Shown here piece by piece: positions 1 to 62,933 of a stretch of 64,000 bases of DNA. The notes below the pieces were generated by a model, which saw nothing but the letters and a program-made list of their open reading frames with translations, was not told the origin of the DNA and did not search any database. The translations under genes and the position numbers were made by a program. Source of the stretch: a virus; the IMG/VR virus record IMGVR_UViG_3300021339_000006, positions 1 to 64,000 of that record; one strand, 5' to 3'. How positions within the stretch are numbered: the stretch's first letter is position 1; each line of letters starts with the position of its first letter.

Positions 1-29
1 CTGGTGAATTCAATTCTAGTCCGTGCATA

Positions 30-641
30 TTATGGTTCGGCGGCGTATGCCGCGATGATGTCCGTGTCAGCAGATCCGAAACAAGTAAGCGTCATAAGAG
101 CCACCTTACTGGCAGCAAGCGAAGCCGGCGCCGCTGCACCTACAAACTTCCAAGCCGGAAACGTAAAGGTGCGCAATGAACTGTCGCCAATAATTTTCAC
201 CGTTATCGACTTGGGCGCGCCTCGGTTGGAGGTGGTGAACGTGATGTTGCCTGTGAGAGTGATTGTCCTGAAATTGTCATTGTCAAAATCGAGGGCAGTT
301 GTGCCTGCATAGGTGAGCGTAGAATGTGCGCCTCTGTGGTTGCCGACAAACAACGAAGCGGTGAGCTTGCCTACTGTAATCATGTCCGTCGCTGGATTGT
401 AGGACAGGATAACAGGCTGGCCGGACTCGTTGAGGTAGGTGATTTGGAAGATGCCCAAAGTCACACCAATGCTCACCATGTCCAGCAATCCGCTGCCTTC
501 CACAATGGTAAGCAACTCCGTTTCGAGTGGTGCTCCTGGGATCGCTGCTGCTGGCAACGCGTTGAGCTGCGCGAACGCAGCGTTGAGTTTAGCGCGGGCA
601 GAAGCACCGCTTTCTCCGTCATCAATATCATCTATTGGCAT
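30..641 (-). CDS. putative tail fibre/receptor-binding accessory protein
   Basis: Directly downstream of TipJ; N-terminal DDGESGASARAKLNAAF helix resembles fibre anchor segments; beta-rich C-terminal domain. Confidence 0.5.
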   Translation of the reverse strand: MPIDDIDDGESGASARAKLNAAFAQLNALPAAAIPGAPLETELLTIVEGSGLLDMVSIGVTLGIFQITYLNESGQPVILSYNPATDMITVGKLTASLFVGNHRGAHSTLTYAGTTALDFDNDNFRTITLTGNITFTTSNRGAPKSITVKIIGDSSLRTFTFPAWKFVGAAAPASLAASKVALMTLTCFGSADTDIIAAYAAEP

Positions 642-4793: not shown

Positions 4794-5546
4794 TCAAGCG
4801 CACTTGGCGTAGAGCACTTCCGAAAAGTAGAACGGAACGGCAGTCCTATCCCACGCCAAACAGATTGCGTTCAATGGTCCGTTGGCACCCTCGTCCACCA
4901 CCTTGTCCGTTGCCAGGATTGCTCCAGAATAATGCGTGTCTCCAGCAGCCAGGTTGATCACGCTTTTGATTGCGTCCAGTCGGTCCTGCAAATCCTCCTC
5001 AATGGGTGACGCTTCCATTGCCTCTACCAACCTTTCGTAGGGCGTGTCCACTGCGTGCGCTGAGGATTTGAAAATAGAACCAATCGACCAGTTCGCATCT
5101 CCGTCTGTTCCCTTGTCAATCAAGAGCACACAGATATACCGATTGGCAGAAGGGAGGTGGCTCATTTTGAAGGCCGTGCTTACCTCTCCAGTTGCTGACA
5201 GCACGTTCCCTACTTTGGTGGTGGCTGCGAAGGAATTGGTAAGATGGTAGTGATTCGTGTCTCTTGTCCATGTCGGCACAACAGTAACGCCTCCAAAGAA
5301 GTTGGAAGTGTTTACGCCCAGCGGGCCATTCGTCAAACCGACTGCTGGATTCGACATCACGCCAGCATACAAACGAGGCGTCCCTGTGATATCGGCACCT
5401 GTGTCACCCATTGCCATCCTCATTCCAATCCGCAGCCTGCTCCAATCGTTTCCAATGGACAGCACGCGCGCAGCGGTTGATTGAGCCAACAACAGCCGAC
5501 TCTCTGCGATTGCGCTAATAGTTACCGAAGCAATAGATGAACTCAT
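4794..5546 (-). CDS. hypothetical virion/tail protein
   Basis: ATGA-coupled to upstream gene; inside tail tip module; no recognised motif. Confidence 0.6.
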   Translation of the reverse strand: MSSSIASVTISAIAESRLLLAQSTAARVLSIGNDWSRLRIGMRMAMGDTGADITGTPRLYAGVMSNPAVGLTNGPLGVNTSNFFGGVTVVPTWTRDTNHYHLTNSFAATTKVGNVLSATGEVSTAFKMSHLPSANRYICVLLIDKGTDGDANWSIGSIFKSSAHAVDTPYERLVEAMEASPIEEDLQDRLDAIKSVINLAAGDTHYSGAILATDKVVDEGANGPLNAICLAWDRTAVPFYFSEVLYAKCA

Positions 5547-39370: not shown

Positions 39371-40015
39371 TTACTTAGCGTAAGGCACAGGGTCAACCAT
39401 CCCTGCTATTGCGAATGCTTTCTTCCGAGGAACACAGCTTGCGCACTCCCCACAATGCGTCTCTCCACTCAAGTAACACGACCAAGTCAATTCCATTGGG
39501 ACGTTGAGCTTTTTCCCAGCCTTCACCACCTCCCATTTGTCCAAGTAATTGATAGGCATCAAAATCTGTGGACACTCTAATCCACAAGCGAATGGAAGTA
39601 GATTGTTAAATGCCTGAGTGAACTCTGGATAGTTGTCTGGATTTCCACCATGCGCAATGTTCCCATGTCCAATGTAAGGGATCCCATTTGTCATGCAGTA
39701 TCCAGCGGCCAACGAGATCAGGATCAGGTTGCGTGCGTTCACTCTCGACACTGCCCCGGAGAGTTCCTTGGCGGGCCGCCTTCCCTGGATCAATCCCGAC
39801 GTGACCACACCTCCAATTGCCACCTCAGCAATGTGGTGAGGCATTCCCATTGCTTTGGCGCAATCCTTGAGCGCCTTGTGCTCTTTCCACGTTGCACGGC
39901 ATCCATAGTCGATCATCAACAGCTCGACTTGGAAACCCTCATCTTTAAGGACTGCCGCAGCAACCACGCTGTCGAGTCCTCCACTGCAAAGAACTGCCAC
40001 TTTGTTTGATTTCAT
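39371..40015 (-). CDS. queC: 7-cyano-7-deazaguanine synthase
   Basis: SGGLDS, DYG, RN.I.IS, PD..PEF, TWSCY, HCGECASC motifs. Confidence 0.95.
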   Translation of the reverse strand: MKSNKVAVLCSGGLDSVVAAAVLKDEGFQVELLMIDYGCRATWKEHKALKDCAKAMGMPHHIAEVAIGGVVTSGLIQGRRPAKELSGAVSRVNARNLILISLAAGYCMTNGIPYIGHGNIAHGGNPDNYPEFTQAFNNLLPFACGLECPQILMPINYLDKWEVVKAGKKLNVPMELTWSCYLSGETHCGECASCVPRKKAFAIAGMVDPVPYAK

Positions 40016-55962: not shown

Positions 55963-57441
55963 TCAGTTGCGTCCTAGTATCTCCCTCAAAAACAATTCTG
56001 CGTCGGTTGTAAACTTATCGGGCTTGTCAGGATGGTAAAAGCGACCTTGCTTGAATTTGACCTCGCGCTTCTGGAACCAATTCCCACCAACCGGCGCAAG
56101 TTCATACTCCACCTCGAGCGGCACAATCAACCACGGATACGCTTTGCGCAATTCCACCGTGACGGTGTGCTCCACAATCTCGAGGTAATTTTTCAGTTCC
56201 TTCTGATGCACGTCCCCAATCAAGCTGTCGTGAATCTGCCCTACAATCATGCTGCGCATCTTATACTTCCGCAGCAAGCGGTTGACTCGGATCAGTGTCC
56301 ACAACAGGCAATGGAAAGCCGAACCCTGCACTGGGTAGTTGGTAACCGCATTGCGTCCGAATGAACCGAACACACGAAACCCAGTAAGAAGGTCAAAGTA
56401 GCCTTTATCCAAGTAGGCGTGATACCAATCGCGCCTCCACTTGCCGTATTCCATGAAACGGACATTCCAAAAGTCGTTTTCAACTTCTTGAATGTGCTTC
56501 TCAAATGTGTGCTTGCGTGGCTTTTCGTCTGGGTCGCAGGCGCCCAGTTCTTTGATCCCTTGCGTGGACTTGAGCCATCCTTTGAGGGACATGCCTCCCG
56601 GTGCGGTCAGCTTGCCCTTATCTATCCACTCCCACAGTGCCTTGGCGCAGGCAACGTAGTAGTCGCCATAAAACTGAGGGAACACAAATTTGTTCTTTGC
56701 GCCATAGCGCGCGTCCTTACTCACATCGTGCGGCTCGAGGCAATAAATCTGCGCCGCCATATCTCGATGCATGTCCTTACCTGGCGTGGTGATATAGGAA
56801 ATGAAGTTCCTATCGTGGTGGTAGCACGCGCTCACACCGACCTCGATACCTTTGAAATCATTCTCCACCAGCAAGTGACCTTTGCTTGCGATAAACAAAC
56901 TGCGGATGATTTCAGCGATCTCCTTATCGCGCACTGGAAAGTTTTGGAAGTTTGGGCTGTTGCTGCTGGAGCGGTAGGTCTTGACCGTGTGCAGATTAAA
57001 GAAGGGATGCAGTCTTCCATCCACAGTCTCACGCTCAATCCCAGTAAGGAATGTCCCTAGCGCCTTGTCATACTTCTGAAACCGAATCAACTTGGGAATG
57101 AAAGGATGGTCGATCTTTTGCAGCGCCTCTTCATCCGTCGAAGGCTTCCCGGACTCTGTTTCATCCGTCACTGCATAGTCCAGCTCTGTATGGAAGATGG
57201 CCGAGATTTGATCCCGCGCAGTCAAGCTGGCTTTAGGGCCAAAACGCCGACGCCACAGTTTCCAAATCCTGTCTTCCTCAATCTCCTGACGCACCTTGCG
57301 CAGCTTGTCCTGAATGTCGCTCTTGGTGCGCTGCAAACGCGGCACGTCAATCCTGATCCCATTGCGCTCGATCCGGGAAAGCTCAATCAGTCCGTTGTGA
57401 AGCAGCGCGTAACCCTCCTGCCTAATCGCATCAATCTTCAA
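55963..57441 (-). CDS. family A DNA polymerase, polymerase domain only
   Basis: SS.SPNFQN, DFKGIE (motif A), R...KNKFVFPQFYG (B), QIHDS (C); TTG start 7 nt after AAGGAG. Confidence 0.92.
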   Translation of the reverse strand: MKIDAIRQEGYALLHNGLIELSRIERNGIRIDVPRLQRTKSDIQDKLRKVRQEIEEDRIWKLWRRRFGPKASLTARDQISAIFHTELDYAVTDETESGKPSTDEEALQKIDHPFIPKLIRFQKYDKALGTFLTGIERETVDGRLHPFFNLHTVKTYRSSSNSPNFQNFPVRDKEIAEIIRSLFIASKGHLLVENDFKGIEVGVSACYHHDRNFISYITTPGKDMHRDMAAQIYCLEPHDVSKDARYGAKNKFVFPQFYGDYYVACAKALWEWIDKGKLTAPGGMSLKGWLKSTQGIKELGACDPDEKPRKHTFEKHIQEVENDFWNVRFMEYGKWRRDWYHAYLDKGYFDLLTGFRVFGSFGRNAVTNYPVQGSAFHCLLWTLIRVNRLLRKYKMRSMIVGQIHDSLIGDVHQKELKNYLEIVEHTVTVELRKAYPWLIVPLEVEYELAPVGGNWFQKREVKFKQGRFYHPDKPDKFTTDAELFLREILGRN

Positions 57442-58618
57442 AGCCCATCTCCTTTCTTTGCACCATCGCGAGTCGGTATTCCAGGATGGCATCCATACCG
57501 CCATACAGGAGCAAGTCTTTGAGGTTCGCCTCGCGGATTCGATTGTAGTGCGTCGATTCGTCAGACTTGAGATAAGATTCAACGTGCGCGTCGTAAATTG
57601 GAACGCCCAGCTTTACCAACGCCTGGAACTTGAGCGAACAAATGCCTTCCCTATTGTCCAAGCAATGGGAAGCCAACATCGTGTCCCATCCCCAGCGCCG
57701 GACGCCGTGGTTGAACATACGCAGCGTCCACCGCTCTTCCATCTTGAGGTTGGAGGCGATCTTTCTGGTGCGTTTGGAACTCAGGAACTTTCCCGTCGCT
57801 GCAATAGCTTTTCCCCACCACGGATAGGACACAGTGCGCTTGCCGTTGCTGACTGCGCAGCTAAAAATCTTCGCTTCCGGCCAGTCCGCTTTAAGGCAGT
57901 TGCATTCGTAATCCACTGCGGCGAAGCCACCAGCAGCATCAATCTCTTCCAACGCCTCAACCACCGCGTCCTCTTCGAACAGCAATTCAATTTTGCTTTC
58001 CCAATTCGGTTGCTTCGGTGGCGACTCTTCAATGTCAAAAGCCATTTCGAGATGGTCGGCGAACAGCCGGTCCATCAATTTGTTTTTCATCCGCAACAGG
58101 TAGGAAGGATGATACGTCGGGACAACCCAATGTTTCTCAAGTGGGATTTTCCAACCGACCCATCGGCCCATCTCTCCTATATCTGTTTTCCAATATGGAC
58201 CGATCACACTGACCAACGCCGACCGGCCCAGCGTAATGATCACGCGCGGTTCGTAAGTCTCGATTGCTTGCAACAGGTTTGGCCGGCAGTAACCGATCTG
58301 CTTCGCGTCTGGCGTTGCATTGTTGGGAGGACGACAGATGAGTGCGTTTGTTACCCAACACTCTTTGTCCAACTTCACCCCCAGACTGCCCAGCGTGTCG
58401 CGTAGGTATTTGCCAGCAAGTCCAACAAATGGACGCCCTTCCTGATCCTCTGTGGCTCCGGGAGCCTCTCCAACCACCATGACCCTCGCCGTTCCTCGTC
58501 CAGCCACCACCATCTTAGGACTGCGACAGGTCTTGAAGAGGCCACAGGAACCACACTTGGGCAGGAATCCCTCTGGCTTTTGACTATGGACTGCGCTTGA
58601 TGCAAAGAATCCAGTCAC
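57431..58618 (-). CDS. family 4 uracil-DNA glycosylase fused to a 3'-5' exonuclease domain
   Basis: CxxC...C, GEAPG..E...G.PFVG, CRP, HPSY; then VDYE, N..ME, WDTML, Y...DA exonuclease motifs. Confidence 0.88.
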   Translation of the reverse strand: MTGFFASSAVHSQKPEGFLPKCGSCGLFKTCRSPKMVVAGRGTARVMVVGEAPGATEDQEGRPFVGLAGKYLRDTLGSLGVKLDKECWVTNALICRPPNNATPDAKQIGYCRPNLLQAIETYEPRVIITLGRSALVSVIGPYWKTDIGEMGRWVGWKIPLEKHWVVPTYHPSYLLRMKNKLMDRLFADHLEMAFDIEESPPKQPNWESKIELLFEEDAVVEALEEIDAAGGFAAVDYECNCLKADWPEAKIFSCAVSNGKRTVSYPWWGKAIAATGKFLSSKRTRKIASNLKMEERWTLRMFNHGVRRWGWDTMLASHCLDNREGICSLKFQALVKLGVPIYDAHVESYLKSDESTHYNRIREANLKDLLLYGGMDAILEYRLAMVQRKEMGFED

Positions 58619-59703
58619 TCGTTGTTACCCTGTTTCTTCTTCTTGGATTTCTTCTCAGGCTGCTCTTCCTCCTCGTCCTCGTCGCCGTCCTCTTCCACTT
58701 CCTTCGCTGCGCTGAGGACAGTGGTGTAGGTCCAGTGACCACCCTTAGCCGAGAGCTTGTCGTTTTGAATCACGGCCTCGGAGTAGTTCTCCGAAATGTG
58801 CTGGAGCAATTCCGGCGAGATCAGGAAGGTCATAGGCGGCCCTTCGTAGGCAACCTTACTCACCTCTTTATACCATCCGAAAACGCCCTCGCCCTTGATC
58901 AGCATCCGCCCGTCCACCAAGTTGACTTGGACTTGCGTCTGCCCCGACGCATCCGCCGCAAACACTGCCGCGCGATCGCTTGCCTTCACTGCCCCTTTCG
59001 GCAGGACAATCTTGTGCCCTTTGACCTTCAGCAAATGATCCAACTCTGGATAGCTCTCAGCATAGCGCCGGCAGGAATAAATCAACCCATCGGCGTTCTT
59101 GAAGTGAATCCAGGACTTGGTCAGGGACATCTTGTTCATCCCCAGCGAGGTAATGTCCTTCAGCGCAGTGCCGCGCACCAACACCGAGTCCTCCAATCCA
59201 ATGTCCACCTTGCAACGCAAGATTTGGAAGTTGTCGCACGCTTCCACGTAGTCCGGATGGAGGTGAATGCAGCACAGCAAGAACTTGCTTTCGTCACCGC
59301 TCACGCAAAGGCTCACCAGCCCTACGGCTTCCGTGAAGTCTGCGGGCAGCTTTTTCCACTTCTCAGGCTGCTCAACGCGATCAATCGGAAGGAAAATTTC
59401 TGCGTCCTTCGTGATCCCAAACCCTTTCTTCTTACCGCGGAACTCCAACTCGCCCCTGTCGTTCTCGCGCACCTTGAGGAATGGATCGTCCAACTTCTGC
59501 AAGATGTCCAGCAGCGCAGTTGCCTGCACAGCACCAGTGATGGTTACTCCGATCTCCTTTCGACAAGCCACCTCGTCGTTGAAGGTCATCACGTTTCCAT
59601 CCTGGAAGACAAAACAGGAGGACTGCTCGATGAACTCCCTGGGTGATAACCCAGAGCGAACGGCCAACAGATCATTTAGGAAGTCTTCTCTTTTTATGTT
59701 CAT
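58615..59703 (-). CDS. sliding clamp (DNA pol III beta-like)
   Basis: 362 aa; S.DE...L..I, A.D....; YP....L; next to polymerase and loader. Confidence 0.75.
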   Translation of the reverse strand: MNIKREDFLNDLLAVRSGLSPREFIEQSSCFVFQDGNVMTFNDEVACRKEIGVTITGAVQATALLDILQKLDDPFLKVRENDRGELEFRGKKKGFGITKDAEIFLPIDRVEQPEKWKKLPADFTEAVGLVSLCVSGDESKFLLCCIHLHPDYVEACDNFQILRCKVDIGLEDSVLVRGTALKDITSLGMNKMSLTKSWIHFKNADGLIYSCRRYAESYPELDHLLKVKGHKIVLPKGAVKASDRAAVFAADASGQTQVQVNLVDGRMLIKGEGVFGWYKEVSKVAYEGPPMTFLISPELLQHISENYSEAVIQNDKLSAKGGHWTYTTVLSAAKEVEEDGDEDEEEEQPEKKSKKKKQGNNE

Positions 59704-59962
59704 TGGTTTTGGTCTTTTCGGAAGCTGCTTTCTTTGCCGGCTTTTCCCGATGCTTCTTTAAGAATCGAAAGAGTGATTCAATTTGCTCATCCGTAAGCTT
59801 GTTTTTGCGCTTGAGGTATTTCCTCAGTCGATCGCCAGACCAACCCACCCAATGCGGAAAGATGTGCATTTGATGGAACGTTGGCATGACATGGGACTTG
59901 CGCTGCGGGATCAGGAATTCGGGTGACGTTGTGCCTCCTCCGCCTGAAAAATAAACTCTCAT
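59672..59962 (-). CDS. small protein resembling the N-terminal strands of TGT/DpdA barrels
   Basis: MRVYFSG...HVMPTFH; ATGA-coupled to the dpdA stop. Confidence 0.55.
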   Translation of the reverse strand: MRVYFSGGGGTTSPEFLIPQRKSHVMPTFHQMHIFPHWVGWSGDRLRKYLKRKNKLTDEQIESLFRFLKKHREKPAKKAASEKTKTNEHKKRRLPK

Positions 59963-61035
59963 AGAATCTCAAAGGACTTCCTGATCCAAGTTCTCTGCGC
60001 GTCTCCAACTCCATCCCGAATCGCCAACGGCCACGGCCACTTGGGCCGGCTCTCTTCAAGGTCTTTGAGGTAATGGAGATTCACCAGTGAACGCGCACGG
60101 AAGTTGGTGCTGACTCCATACGGCTCCTCTTCCGTCGAATTCAACTCAACACCCAGATGTCCCAACCACCGGTCCGTGTCCTCTTTAATCGAAAGCTTGG
60201 CGTTGTCATAATGCTTGTCCTTGCACTGCCTGGGATGCCGACCTTTTGTAGTCCACGCAAAACGATTCATCCGCTTTGTCACCTTACGCGAAACGTTGAC
60301 CTGCATGGGAGGCACATCGTATCGGAAGCCAGTTCTCTTGTCCCACCTGGGCACGAGAATCCAGCCGTAGGATGCAAGTTTGATCCACGTTGCCGAGTCC
60401 ACCGACCACCACGGCCAGCGGCACATCAGCTTCCAAGAGGTCATCGCAAAGCCGTGTGTCTTAATGACGGGCAAGAATCCATTGGACTCTGGACAGAGCT
60501 TTGTGAACAACGTGTCTGCCCAACGCATGTAAACGCCCACGCCGATTGAATGACCTAAGCCACCGATCCCAATCAGATCGTAACGCCCAGCCTCAAGGTA
60601 ACGATCCACATACTTCAAGTTCGTCCCTGCATGAATCACAGGAATGGGTTGGACACCGTGCTCTTCCTCAAAGAATCGCTGCACCTCCCAAGTCAGGTCT
60701 GGATTCTGAATTACGTCCACCGTGGTGATCAGGACACCAGTGCCTTCCAGCTTCTTTACAAACACTGCAAACTTGTCGCAGTAGGCTCGGAACGCAGAAC
60801 CTTTGGACAAGTCGAAGAACGAGTAATCCCCTTTGCCTCGAGGGATCGCCGCAGGTTCAAGACTGCGTCCGTGCTTCCCGATCTTCTCCTTGTGCCCTAC
60901 ATGGAGGTTGAACAACGAGTAAGCGCCCGAGTCAACAAACATGGACTGGCAGGACAGATCGCCGTCCTCGATCTCTGTCCAAGAACGGCTGTCTCGGATC
61001 ATCCGTCGGTTAATCTCCTTCAGCGATTCACTCAT
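59959..61035 (-). CDS. dpdA: DNA 7-deazaguanine transglycosylase (TGT-like)
   Basis: FVDSGAYS, DVI, PIPVIH, IGIGG, HGF, PWWSVDS..W motifs; clustered with folE/queD/queE. Confidence 0.85.
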   Translation of the reverse strand: MSESLKEINRRMIRDSRSWTEIEDGDLSCQSMFVDSGAYSLFNLHVGHKEKIGKHGRSLEPAAIPRGKGDYSFFDLSKGSAFRAYCDKFAVFVKKLEGTGVLITTVDVIQNPDLTWEVQRFFEEEHGVQPIPVIHAGTNLKYVDRYLEAGRYDLIGIGGLGHSIGVGVYMRWADTLFTKLCPESNGFLPVIKTHGFAMTSWKLMCRWPWWSVDSATWIKLASYGWILVPRWDKRTGFRYDVPPMQVNVSRKVTKRMNRFAWTTKGRHPRQCKDKHYDNAKLSIKEDTDRWLGHLGVELNSTEEEPYGVSTNFRARSLVNLHYLKDLEESRPKWPWPLAIRDGVGDAQRTWIRKSFEIL

Positions 61036-61241
61036 TGCTGTAGGTGCTCCTTTGCTTGCGCAACCACGCACCCGTGCTTGTGTCGAACTTGAGGAGGTGT
61101 CTTGCCAGTGTCATTGCAGTGGACACAATACCACTCAACCGAAAGGATTGTGTCCAACATAGACATCCCTCTGCGTGCTGGACGCTCCTTGATAGCAAGG
61201 TCAACCATCTCACTTAAAAGCTGCTTGGTGCTTTTACTCAT
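61032..61241 (-). CDS. small Zn-finger-like protein
   Basis: CVHC...H..GC; coupled between folE and dpdA. Confidence 0.65.
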   Translation of the reverse strand: MSKSTKQLLSEMVDLAIKERPARRGMSMLDTILSVEWYCVHCNDTGKTPPQVRHKHGCVVAQAKEHLQQ

Positions 61242-61827
61242 TGTTGGACTTTGCCAATTCGATCAGCTTGTAGAATTCAGCACGCACCTCTGCCTTCAAA
61301 AACGTGCCGCGCAACTGGGAGGTGACCATTACCGCTTTTTGTTTCTGCACGCCTCGGCACGCCATGCATTGGTGCTTTGCCTGAATCACAACACCAACAC
61401 CGGCCGGCTTGAGATGCTTCGACATTGCGTCCGCAATCTCCACTGTCATCTTTTCCTGAATCTGCAACCGCCGCGCAAAGCAATCCACCAAACGCGCCAT
61501 CTTGGACAGTCCCACCACACGTGACTTCCTCTTCGATGGCAGATAGGCAATGTGCGCGTAGCCAACAAACGGAAGCAGATGGTGCTCGCATACAGAACTG
61601 AATTCGATCCACGAGCAGTTAATCATTTGATCGTAACGGCCCGCAGCGAAATCACGCTCCAGTATTTCCTCTGGACGCTGGCAGTAGCCTAGCGTCATCT
61701 CGTCCCATGCACGCACCACCCTGTCGGGCGTGTCCTGGAGGCCGTCCCTGTCAACGTCCTCACCGACATAGCTGAGCAAGGTGCGAATCGCCTCTCGCGC
61801 CATCACTTCTGTTGCCTGTTCCTTCAT
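61234..61827 (-). CDS. folE: GTP cyclohydrolase I
   Basis: GL.DTP.RV, CEHHLLPF.G, GLSK, RLQ.QE, H.CM..RG motifs. Confidence 0.97.
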   Translation of the reverse strand: MKEQATEVMAREAIRTLLSYVGEDVDRDGLQDTPDRVVRAWDEMTLGYCQRPEEILERDFAAGRYDQMINCSWIEFSSVCEHHLLPFVGYAHIAYLPSKRKSRVVGLSKMARLVDCFARRLQIQEKMTVEIADAMSKHLKPAGVGVVIQAKHQCMACRGVQKQKAVMVTSQLRGTFLKAEVRAEFYKLIELAKSNNE

Positions 61828-62529
61828 TCAATAGCCTTTTGCTGGATCGCCTCCCAATGGGACTGGCGTCCTGCTCCTACTATCTGCGAGGTCCACGGCA
61901 TACAACTTGTGAAGCTGCCATCCAGCGCGCAGTGGCTGCCCTCGATAGCACTGCACCACAGCCTCGGAGATCGCGTTCAGCACTGCCGGATTCTTCCGCT
62001 GACTCCACTCTGGGTGCAACCAAACCGAATTGGGAATCGGATCAGTCCCGAACGCCTCCTCCAACGCCTTCAGGTAGAAATCAATGTCTGCTGGCGTTTC
62101 GATGATCAGCTTGAACTCATCTGCCTGCTGGATGTTCTCAACCAATGGCATTTTCCACTTCTTGGGTGAGAGGGTTATGAAATCGAAATGACCCTTCATC
62201 GGAAACGATCCACTCGTCTCCAAATGAACCTGCATGAAAGAGGTGCGCAGTTCGTGCGTCAATTCTGTGAGGTCATGAACAGTCGGCTCGCCTCCAGTAA
62301 TGACAACAAAATCAACGATGGGATCCGCGCACGCCTCGACACGAATCTCCTCTGCCGACATGCGCTTGATGTCCTTGGGCACATGGTCTGGATGCCAAGT
62401 GCCTGCGCTGTCGCACCAAGGGCATTGCACTGGGCAGCCGAATGTCCTCAGGAAATAGGCTGGGCGTCCCATGTGGGTGCCCTCACCTTGGAACGTCCTG
62501 AATCGCTCGTGTATTGGATACAACTTCAT
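61828..62529 (-). CDS. queE: 7-carboxy-7-deazaguanine synthase (radical SAM)
   Basis: F.T.QGEG, CPVQCPWCD, TGGEP, ETSG, SPK, QLHK motifs. Confidence 0.95.
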   Translation of the reverse strand: MKLYPIHERFRTFQGEGTHMGRPAYFLRTFGCPVQCPWCDSAGTWHPDHVPKDIKRMSAEEIRVEACADPIVDFVVITGGEPTVHDLTELTHELRTSFMQVHLETSGSFPMKGHFDFITLSPKKWKMPLVENIQQADEFKLIIETPADIDFYLKALEEAFGTDPIPNSVWLHPEWSQRKNPAVLNAISEAVVQCYRGQPLRAGWQLHKLYAVDLADSRSRTPVPLGGDPAKGY

Positions 62530-62891
62530 GGTTGGTAAATGCAAGACGAGGTGCAAGTTTCGTCAATCTCGATGGCAACGAGGCTGGGCAAGCTGTCCTT
62601 GAGTCGCTCGTAAATCCAACGCGCTAATTCCTCGCTGGTTGGATTCTCAAGGCCAGTGGTCTCGTTGAGATAGTGGTGATCCAACCTCTCCTCAACAAAC
62701 GACTTCACCTCCTTGGAGATGGTGCCGAAGTCCATCAGCATTCCCTGCTTCGGCCCATAGAAGATAAGCTTCTCACCCTGCACCACAACGCGCATCACCC
62801 ACGAGTGTCCGTGCAATCGTTGGCACTTTCCATCATGGTGAGGCAGCTTGTGGGCTGCCTCGAATTTGAATTCCTTTTTGAGTGTAAACAT
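62526..62891 (-). CDS. queD: 6-carboxytetrahydropterin synthase
   Basis: FEAAH.L, C..LHGHS, DH..LN, NPTSE, ET motifs. Confidence 0.95.
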   Translation of the reverse strand: MFTLKKEFKFEAAHKLPHHDGKCQRLHGHSWVMRVVVQGEKLIFYGPKQGMLMDFGTISKEVKSFVEERLDHHYLNETTGLENPTSEELARWIYERLKDSLPSLVAIEIDETCTSSCIYQP

Positions 62892-62904
62892 TTTCGTTCT
62901 CGAA

Positions 62905-62933
62905 AGGGTGCCGGCATCTGCGTCCGGCACCCT
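62905..62933 (-). terminator. GC-rich hairpin upstream of queD
   Basis: Perfect 10-bp stem AGGGTGCCGG/CCGGCACCCT with a short T run. Confidence 0.5.

Follow-up and report, generated by a model that had tools for sequence, protein, structure and literature searches.

Annotation pipelines look for DpdA, the signature enzyme of phage 7-deazaguanine DNA modification, as a single gene. The 64,000-nucleotide stretch of viral DNA analyzed here (the window; positions 1 to 64,000 of IMG/VR virus record IMGVR_UViG_3300021339_000006, a genome of 76,797 bases rated complete by CheckV) carries instead two adjacent genes, and we conclude that its DpdA is very probably a two-chain TIM-barrel enzyme, composed of a 358-amino-acid (aa) core that carries barrel strands 3 to 8 and a 96-aa protein, here called the module, that carries strands 1 and 2 and helix 2. 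The part of the barrel that should come first is encoded second, it is homologous to a segment that relatives of the core carry in cis, and the family includes natural N-fused, C-fused, and split variants.

The core open reading frame (ORF) occupies 59959..61035 on the minus strand, from an ATG at 61035 to a stop codon at 59959-59961, and its FVDSG motif (F33-V34-D35-S36-G37) lies very close to the start. The sole in-frame start codon further upstream is a GTG at 61071, which would add just 12 residues and would overlap an upstream 69-aa ORF; beyond it, the frame is closed by a stop codon. Because a stop codon closes the core frame 12 codons before the ATG, no strand 1 or strand 2 can be encoded in frame ahead of the DSG strand. 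The module gene (59672..59962, minus strand) lies in the −1 frame relative to the core, and direct reading of the sequence places its ATG over the core TGA in an ATGA overlap (59959-59962), which suggests that the two genes are coupled through termination and reinitiation. The module starts MRVYFSG, with HVMPTFH at residues 24-30, and can be divided into strands 1 (RVYFSG) and 2 (HVMPTFH) with a loop between them, helix 2 (DRLRKYLKRK), one more helix, and a tail rich in Lys and Arg (14 Lys/Arg versus 6 Asp/Glu in residues 57-96). A preliminary description of the window, made from the letters alone, had placed the DSG motif ~35 residues from the ATG with no strand before it, had noted the coupled 96-aa gene with its two motifs, and had called the end of the small protein basic; all of this reads exactly so.

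Several lines of evidence identify the core as a relative of DpdA. It matches two PHROGs families annotated “queuine tRNA-ribosyltransferase” (phrog_887, E value of 2.6e-27, and phrog_7068, E value of 2.2e-10), and tblastn connects it to genes annotated as DpdA in 153 cultured phages, with 25-35% identity (E values of 1e-16 to 4e-18). A further ~300 metagenomic homologues are 40-60% identical to it. Across 116 family sequences, D35 (DSG), D107, H135, and D213 (SVDS) are invariant, and in an AlphaFold2 (AF2) model of the core, D35, D107, and D213 each lie where a predicted strand ends (strands 3, 4, and 8, respectively). The active site of DpdA and TGT contains a general acid/base Asp on the DSG strand, a base-recognizing Asp, and an Asp that serves as nucleophile. 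The bacterial DpdA has its DSG Asp, D95, at the end of strand 3, preceded by strands 1 and 2 with the loops Ins1 and Ins2 (PMC10164549). Judged by motif and strand position, D35 is the putative general acid/base and D213 the putative nucleophile of the core, in a match to D95, D130, and D256 of the bacterial enzyme, and D35, D107, and D213 together with H135 fit the three Asp residues and the His of bacterial DpdA catalysis and base recognition (PMC10164549).

The segment that the core lacks is present in some of its homologues. Twelve longer homologues (405-435 aa), inspected over their whole length, carry an extra segment, N-terminal in eight and C-terminal in four, with the pattern MR[IV]YFSGG...PE.L.P..KPH[IV]MLT[FY]H...DRLN.YL.RK. 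When a motif scan was applied to the 120 homologues listed, the segment was N-terminal in 13, C-terminal in 4 (one of them classed as “noDSG”), and absent from ~90; P0015, P0070, P0078, P0085, P0087, P0090, P0099, P0111, P0119, and others belong to the N-terminal group and P0027, P0067, P0122, and P0125 to the C-terminal group. We built a profile solely from the cis-fused segment of 17 core homologues and found that it scored the 96-aa ORF at 58 bits over residues 1-56 (E value of 1.5e-14 for a nominal 1e6 sequences); the resemblance is not a chance one. An unfiltered phmmer search with the module against 1.84e9 proteins returned five stand-alone homologues (75-90 aa), the N terminus of the fused protein P0119 (E value of 6.9e-4), and one repeat-protein artifact; the stand-alone protein closest to the module is P0009, which shares 72% identity with it and keeps the strand motifs.

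Because relatives carry the same segment at either end and the split form exists alongside them, the family contains a natural circular permutation: as judged from the sequences, N-fused, C-fused, and split forms are all natural in it. The permutation-like layout proposed in the preliminary description is thereby borne out, and homologues fused at either end, which it had suggested looking for, do exist. Its statement that phage TGT-like proteins often start MKxYFAG also agrees with what we found, in that distant single-chain relatives start MRLYFAG, MRIYFG, and MKIYLAA; as the bacterial TGT motif at the strand ahead of DSG, it had named ILGNTFH. More distant relatives have strands 1 and 2 in cis at the N terminus, and this position, as in TGT and bacterial DpdA, is likely to be the deep ancestral state.

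Structure prediction agrees with this division of the barrel. The core alone was modeled by AF2 with a predicted local distance difference test (pLDDT) score of 87.6 and has six parallel barrel strands (residues 32-34, 101-104, 133-135, 154-158, 192-196, and 211-213). Its best structural match is the crystal structure of DpdA, 7ui4 (Z score of 13.0, root mean square deviation [rmsd] of 4.4, 248 residues aligned), and most of its alignment rows with Z. mobilis TGT pair residues 24..332 with residues 91..363 of that chain, i.e., from just ahead of strand 3. The N-fused homologue P0119 was modeled with a pLDDT of 89.7 (94-98 in the module blocks), and its model shows a strand at residues 2-5, a short helix, a strand at 25-29, a helix at 36-48, and then, past a basic linker, the DSG strand at 75-78. 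This model aligns with Z. mobilis TGT from 1..376 or 1..379 to 40..363 or 40..366 (Z score of 17.3, rmsd of 3.6, 267 residues aligned), with human QTRT1 from QTRT1 residue 43 (Z score of 18.0), and with the TGT structures 7nq4, 2ash, and 1q2r over its whole length (Z scores of 17-18); the Foldseek probability of a match to TGT was 1.0. Thus, the N-fused protein matches TGT over the whole barrel with a Z score of 17.3, versus ~12 for the core alone, and in the predicted fold the cis segment is barrel strand 1, strand 2, and helix 2. The fold is of the TGT-type (β/α)8 kind, and the barrel of the window needs both chains to complete it. These results support the view that the core is a DpdA relative without barrel strands 1 and 2 that carries strands 3 to 8 and all of the candidate catalytic residues. 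The gap in the core sits exactly between strands 8 (D213) and 3 (D35), such that, according to the models, the core alone is unlikely to form an active site.

We also modeled a complex of the core with module residues 1-75, in three runs and with three controls. The interface score (ipSAE) was 0.91, compared with 0.00 for the best control; the mark applied to this score is met by 58 of 80 solved complexes and by 2 of 110 mismatched pairs. The runs agreed in at least 93% of contacts, with a partner pLDDT of at least 84. The lowest-error contacts joined module residues 3-4 to core residues 211-213 and module residues 24-27 to core residues 31-34, which gives a strand order of 8-1-2-3, with module strand 1 placed on core strand 8 and module strand 2 on core strand 3. 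The proposal that the missing first strands are supplied in trans is therefore supported by the six-strand core, the homology to the cis segments, the P0119 model, and the modeled complex, in which the module is predicted to complete the barrel between strands 8 and 3. A large ORF that models as a complete barrel, paired with a small ORF devoid of TGT similarity, is not what was found.

Several results nevertheless weigh against a two-chain DpdA. The structural evidence is wholly predicted, and the complex prediction shows likeness to an intact barrel rather than measured binding, since the two parts of one split gene often pass such predictions because they resemble solved single-chain structures (here, TGT and DpdA). 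For the two-chain organization, separate ORFs, conservation, and recurrence were all found; assembly is represented by the complex model, whose pass may reflect likeness to single-chain barrels. By sequence, the core had no match at an E value of ≤1 in Pfam (TGT model included) or NCBIfam, and neither phmmer nor the family profile found a TGT or DpdA relative in the PDB, the profile giving only chance matches to NADPH dehydrogenase; this branch of cores is therefore divergent. The CxCx2Cx22H zinc site of bacterial DpdA and TGT is absent from the core, which has five scattered cysteines (C29, C86, C181, C205, and C271) and no CxCxxC. The canonical phage DpdAs that we inspected likewise lack the zinc motif, and the core is therefore filed with the phage DpdA-like enzymes and not with bacterial DpdA or TGT. 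Lastly, the iterated module profile did not significantly match the N termini of canonical and distant single-chain DpdAs or the Edwardsiella phage ORF ZHS_63 (best E value of 0.11 for 1,000 sequences). Other searches with the module gave chance-level matches only in Pfam, NCBIfam, and PHROGs, no significant BLASTP match to two canonical DpdAs, and nothing better than an E value of 0.45 by sequence in the PDB. As sequence comparison does not reach the canonical DpdA N termini or the PDB, the link of the module to strands 1 and 2 rests on the N-fused members of the family and on fold comparison.

The pattern of conservation in the modules bears on the question of whether the core could do without them. 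Across 77 modules, conservation peaks in the framework strand motifs ([IV]Y[FY]SG and [IV]M[LP]T[FY]), as fits a buried structural role, and is lowest in the loops that follow strands 1 and 2. It is thus very unlikely that the core works by itself, as a six-strand or re-closed barrel, and that the small basic protein is a descendant of the N-terminal segment with an accessory DNA-binding or regulatory function, even though the long basic tail of the 96-aa protein is typical of nucleic acid binders; the gap in the core, falling exactly between the strands with the two candidate catalytic Asp residues, also argues against such an enzyme. The annotated DpdA of Edwardsiella phage vB_EpM_ZHS (OM621816.1; L001:2995-3795), which is 266 aa long and begins right at the DSG strand, would favor a core acting alone, but this phage has a small ORF with strand-1-like and strand-2-like sequences, recognized by eye only, two genes downstream. 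The ORF in question (L001:4301-4585) encodes a 94-aa hypothetical protein that starts VKVFLVVGA and has RVLVSFVEY ~30 residues on; the module profile does not match it significantly, and the phage may offer a cultured test bed for a split DpdA. Another ZHS protein, a “nucleoside 2-deoxyribosyltransferase” with a similar first strand, was considered as the module equivalent and rejected because by appearance it is a full-length, 136-aa member of its own family. Two modules, searched by tblastn against 50,697 records of cultured phages, gave no match.

The split arrangement recurs widely among uncultured viruses. An alignment-based scan of IMG/VR yielded 79 loci (numbered with the prefix L), in which an iterated module profile found 65 module copies. 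These loci hold 42 non-redundant cores, of which 23 are accompanied by one module ORF and 9 by several, on the same strand and nearly always downstream, while 2 are N-fused (L015 and L023), 2 are C-fused (L043 and L032), and 6 have no profile match (4 of these 6 have a module-like ORF at the same place, as judged by eye, and 1 lies at a contig end). A split with the module downstream is the commonest layout among them. Locus L004 reproduces the order of the window exactly (FolE, core, ATGA, module, clamp), with its ATGA at 4918-4921. When the cores are placed in a midpoint-rooted maximum-likelihood tree, N-fused forms and C-fused forms fall at separate places within split clades, which implies at least two changes for each fused form; the tree has no outgroup root, and no direction is claimed for these changes.

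Given that more than 30 independent viral contigs, which come from different samples, share the layout and have their ORFs intact, it is extremely unlikely that the window represents a broken gene or an assembly artifact, in which a rearrangement destroyed dpdA in a metagenomic contig and left its pieces to decay. The record is indeed that of a metagenome-assembled virus, and the related loci L012 and L013 each have, beside an intact module, a second module copy spread over two reading frames (L012:4550-4676 and L013:4420-4546), which is explained either by a sequencing error or by a frameshift in a pseudogene. However, all of the invariant residues are kept in the core of the window, the two genes are tightly coupled through ATGA, and the strand motifs are preserved between the module and P0009. 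In L009, a relative of L012 and L013, both module copies are intact.

The same loci speak to another alternative, that the two genes give a single chain after all through a −1 shift or other recoding at the ATGA, which would join core and module into a C-fused, permuted polypeptide. The module is in the appropriate frame for this, −1 relative to the core at the overlap, and the natural C-fused homologues (P0027, P0067, P0122, and P0125, and the loci L043 and L032) show that a C-terminal module is tolerated. We nonetheless regard recoding as very unlikely, as there is no slippery heptamer at the junction (GAGATTCTATGAGAG), modules often lie tens to hundreds of bases or an ORF away from their cores (L014, L016, L021, and L006), so that fusion by frameshifting cannot be general, and the several modules found in arrays cannot all be fused. 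The ORF that separates core and module in L006 is 173 aa long.

A two-chain DpdA of this kind can be compared with several known systems. The single-chain DpdAs of Queuovirinae-type phages (for example, Vibrio phage VspDsh_1 and Sphingomonas phage MMDA13) share 29-35% identity with the core over residues ~30-260, as well as the DSG, HGF, and SxDS motifs and the gene order FolE, dpdA, small ORF, clamp, DNA polymerase; they differ in having ~65 residues ahead of the DSG strand, with the strand-1 and strand-2 motifs in cis, and the small ORFs that follow their dpdA genes (P0003 and P0004) are unrelated to the module. Bacterial DpdA (S. Montevideo, 7UI4; PMC10164549) has the TGT-like TIM barrel that is the best structural match of the core, a DSG Asp ending strand 3 and a second Asp as its proposed general acid/base and nucleophile (here the invariant D35 and D213), and linkage to preQ0 synthesis genes, as in the window. 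In contrast to the window enzyme, it is one chain with strands 1 and 2 at its N terminus rather than in a separate downstream gene product, it has the zinc site noted above and needs DpdB and ATP, and sequence profiles do not connect it with the window enzyme. The TGTs (bacterial TGT, human QTRT1, and archaeal ArcTGT) share the same barrel but act on tRNA, have an N-terminal β-sheet lid and a zinc subdomain, and form dimers. Split archaeal ArcTGTs are cut between domains and are not known to be cut within the barrel. More generally, transaldolase compared with the aldolases, the GH70 glucansucrases, and engineered HisF half-barrels show that the (β/α)8 fold tolerates new termini and assembly from fragments, the natural cases among these being fixed single-chain permutants and the laboratory ones 4+4 splits. 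Here, in contrast, N-fused, C-fused, and 2+6 split forms occur together in one natural family, and the cut in the window falls between the two catalytic strands. The N-fused, split, and C-fused forms of this TIM-barrel family are states invoked by fission/fusion models of circular permutation.

The gene neighborhood is that expected of a phage DpdA. The core and module belong to an operon-like minus-strand run that begins with QueD (6-carboxytetrahydropterin synthase, PTPS fold; 62526..62930; PF01242, E value of 2.2e-37) and continues with a QueE-like radical SAM enzyme (61828..62556; PF04055 and PF13353, with a fitting place between QueD and FolE), FolE (GTP cyclohydrolase I, the first step to preQ0; 61234..61827; PF01227, E value of 6.4e-67), the 69-aa ORF (61032..61241), the core, the module, and a sliding-clamp-like gene immediately past the module (58615..59703). 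QueC (7-cyano-7-deazaguanine synthase) is encoded elsewhere in the genome, at 39371..40015 on the minus strand (PF06508, 141 bits, above the family cutoff). With QueC present in addition to FolE, QueE, and QueD, the phage-encoded preQ0 pathway is complete, and the association of phage DpdA with preQ0/7-deazaguanine synthesis is found here too, FolE, QueE, and QueD lying directly upstream of the core. The 69-aa ORF between FolE and the core has Cys/His motifs (CxxC...HxHxC), its stop codon overlaps the core start ATG at 61035, again as ATGA, and family-library searches with it gave no significant match. The order core, module(s), clamp also occurs in L004, L006, and other loci, and cultured relatives, in which the clamp is annotated, have the same order. 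The 76.8-kb genome contains no second module or second core, the module of the window being the sole copy, and when bacterial and archaeal genomes were scanned, just four weak loci came up, all in metagenome-assembled genomes, so that the host cannot be named.

These observations suggest how such an enzyme might be made and might act. Most likely, ribosomes that terminate at the core TGA reinitiate at the overlapping ATG, such that both chains would be produced together. The module would then dock between strand 8 (D213) and strand 3 (D35), thereby completing both the (β/α)8 barrel and the active site, and the resulting holoenzyme would exchange guanine in phage DNA for preQ0 supplied by the phage FolE, QueD, QueE, and QueC. 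As we noticed no amidotransferase, the simplest prediction for the product is dPreQ0. The module has a basic tail, the counterpart of the basic linker in the N-fused relatives, which would probably lie on the DNA.

Full-text literature searches, including the key DpdA papers (PMC6884629, PMC10516641, and PMC10164549), turned up no account of a DpdA that is split or permuted, and the form reported here gives a known kind of enzyme a new architecture. In a large clade of uncultured phages, DpdA appears to be encoded as a core with six strands and a small, ~50-100-aa protein that is unnamed in databases, which is of interest for both phage DNA modification and the evolution of protein folds. Cores expressed alone may be inactive, a point that bears on failed tests of divergent DpdAs. 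Heterologous tests of DpdA3 and DpdA4 have been unsuccessful (PMC10516641), although we do not attribute those failures to this cause.

Some related loci contain tandem arrays of two to seven diverged module paralogs beside a single core, always ahead of the clamp gene. The largest, L042:1672-3986, has one module upstream and six downstream of its core; L040:4460-5342 has five, L029:4322-5012 has three, L041:3293-5628 has at least three matches, and L055:4355-4659, L028:4406-4772, and L009:1961-2304 have two each. Comparison of the copies in L042, L040, and L055 showed identities of 20-53%; each copy is ~50-66 aa long and has an intact frame and a basic tail. In bacterial DpdA, the loops at the positions that vary most among the modules (Ins1 and Ins2) flank the DNA-binding face and the active site (PMC10164549). 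The variability of these loops in array modules and their location near the DNA face in the bacterial enzyme suggest, tentatively, that the module is an exchangeable specificity subunit, with one core using alternative modules to obtain different target sequence preferences, a possibility that we consider doubtful. By analogy with the HsdS subunits of type I restriction-modification systems, an enzyme with exchangeable modules could broaden or tune genome modification, the single-module split form of the window would represent such a system at its simplest, and nature would, if this is true, have provided a way to retarget a DNA base-exchange enzyme. In two of the array loci, the gene ahead of the core is not FolE but a phosphoribosyltransferase-like gene with a VPRGG motif (L040:2499-3425 and L042:601-1587), which hints that the precursor is supplied in another way or by salvage.

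Two further observations concern genes at or near these loci. The core of L006 (L006:3983-5932) is interrupted by an intein-like insert of ~320 aa located exactly within the WPWW-SVDS motif of the putative nucleophile Asp, and the neighboring sliding-clamp gene (L006:6304-8316) also has an intein-like insert; L006 and L030 are the same contig. In the window, the clamp-like gene is followed on the minus strand by a 395-aa protein with an N-terminal uracil-DNA glycosylase (UDG) superfamily domain (57431-58618) and then by a 539-aa family A DNA polymerase ORF (55963-57582), the start of which is overlapped by the 395-aa ORF by ~150 bases. The polymerase may be divided between two ORFs that overlap, or its N-terminal part may carry a UDG-like domain.

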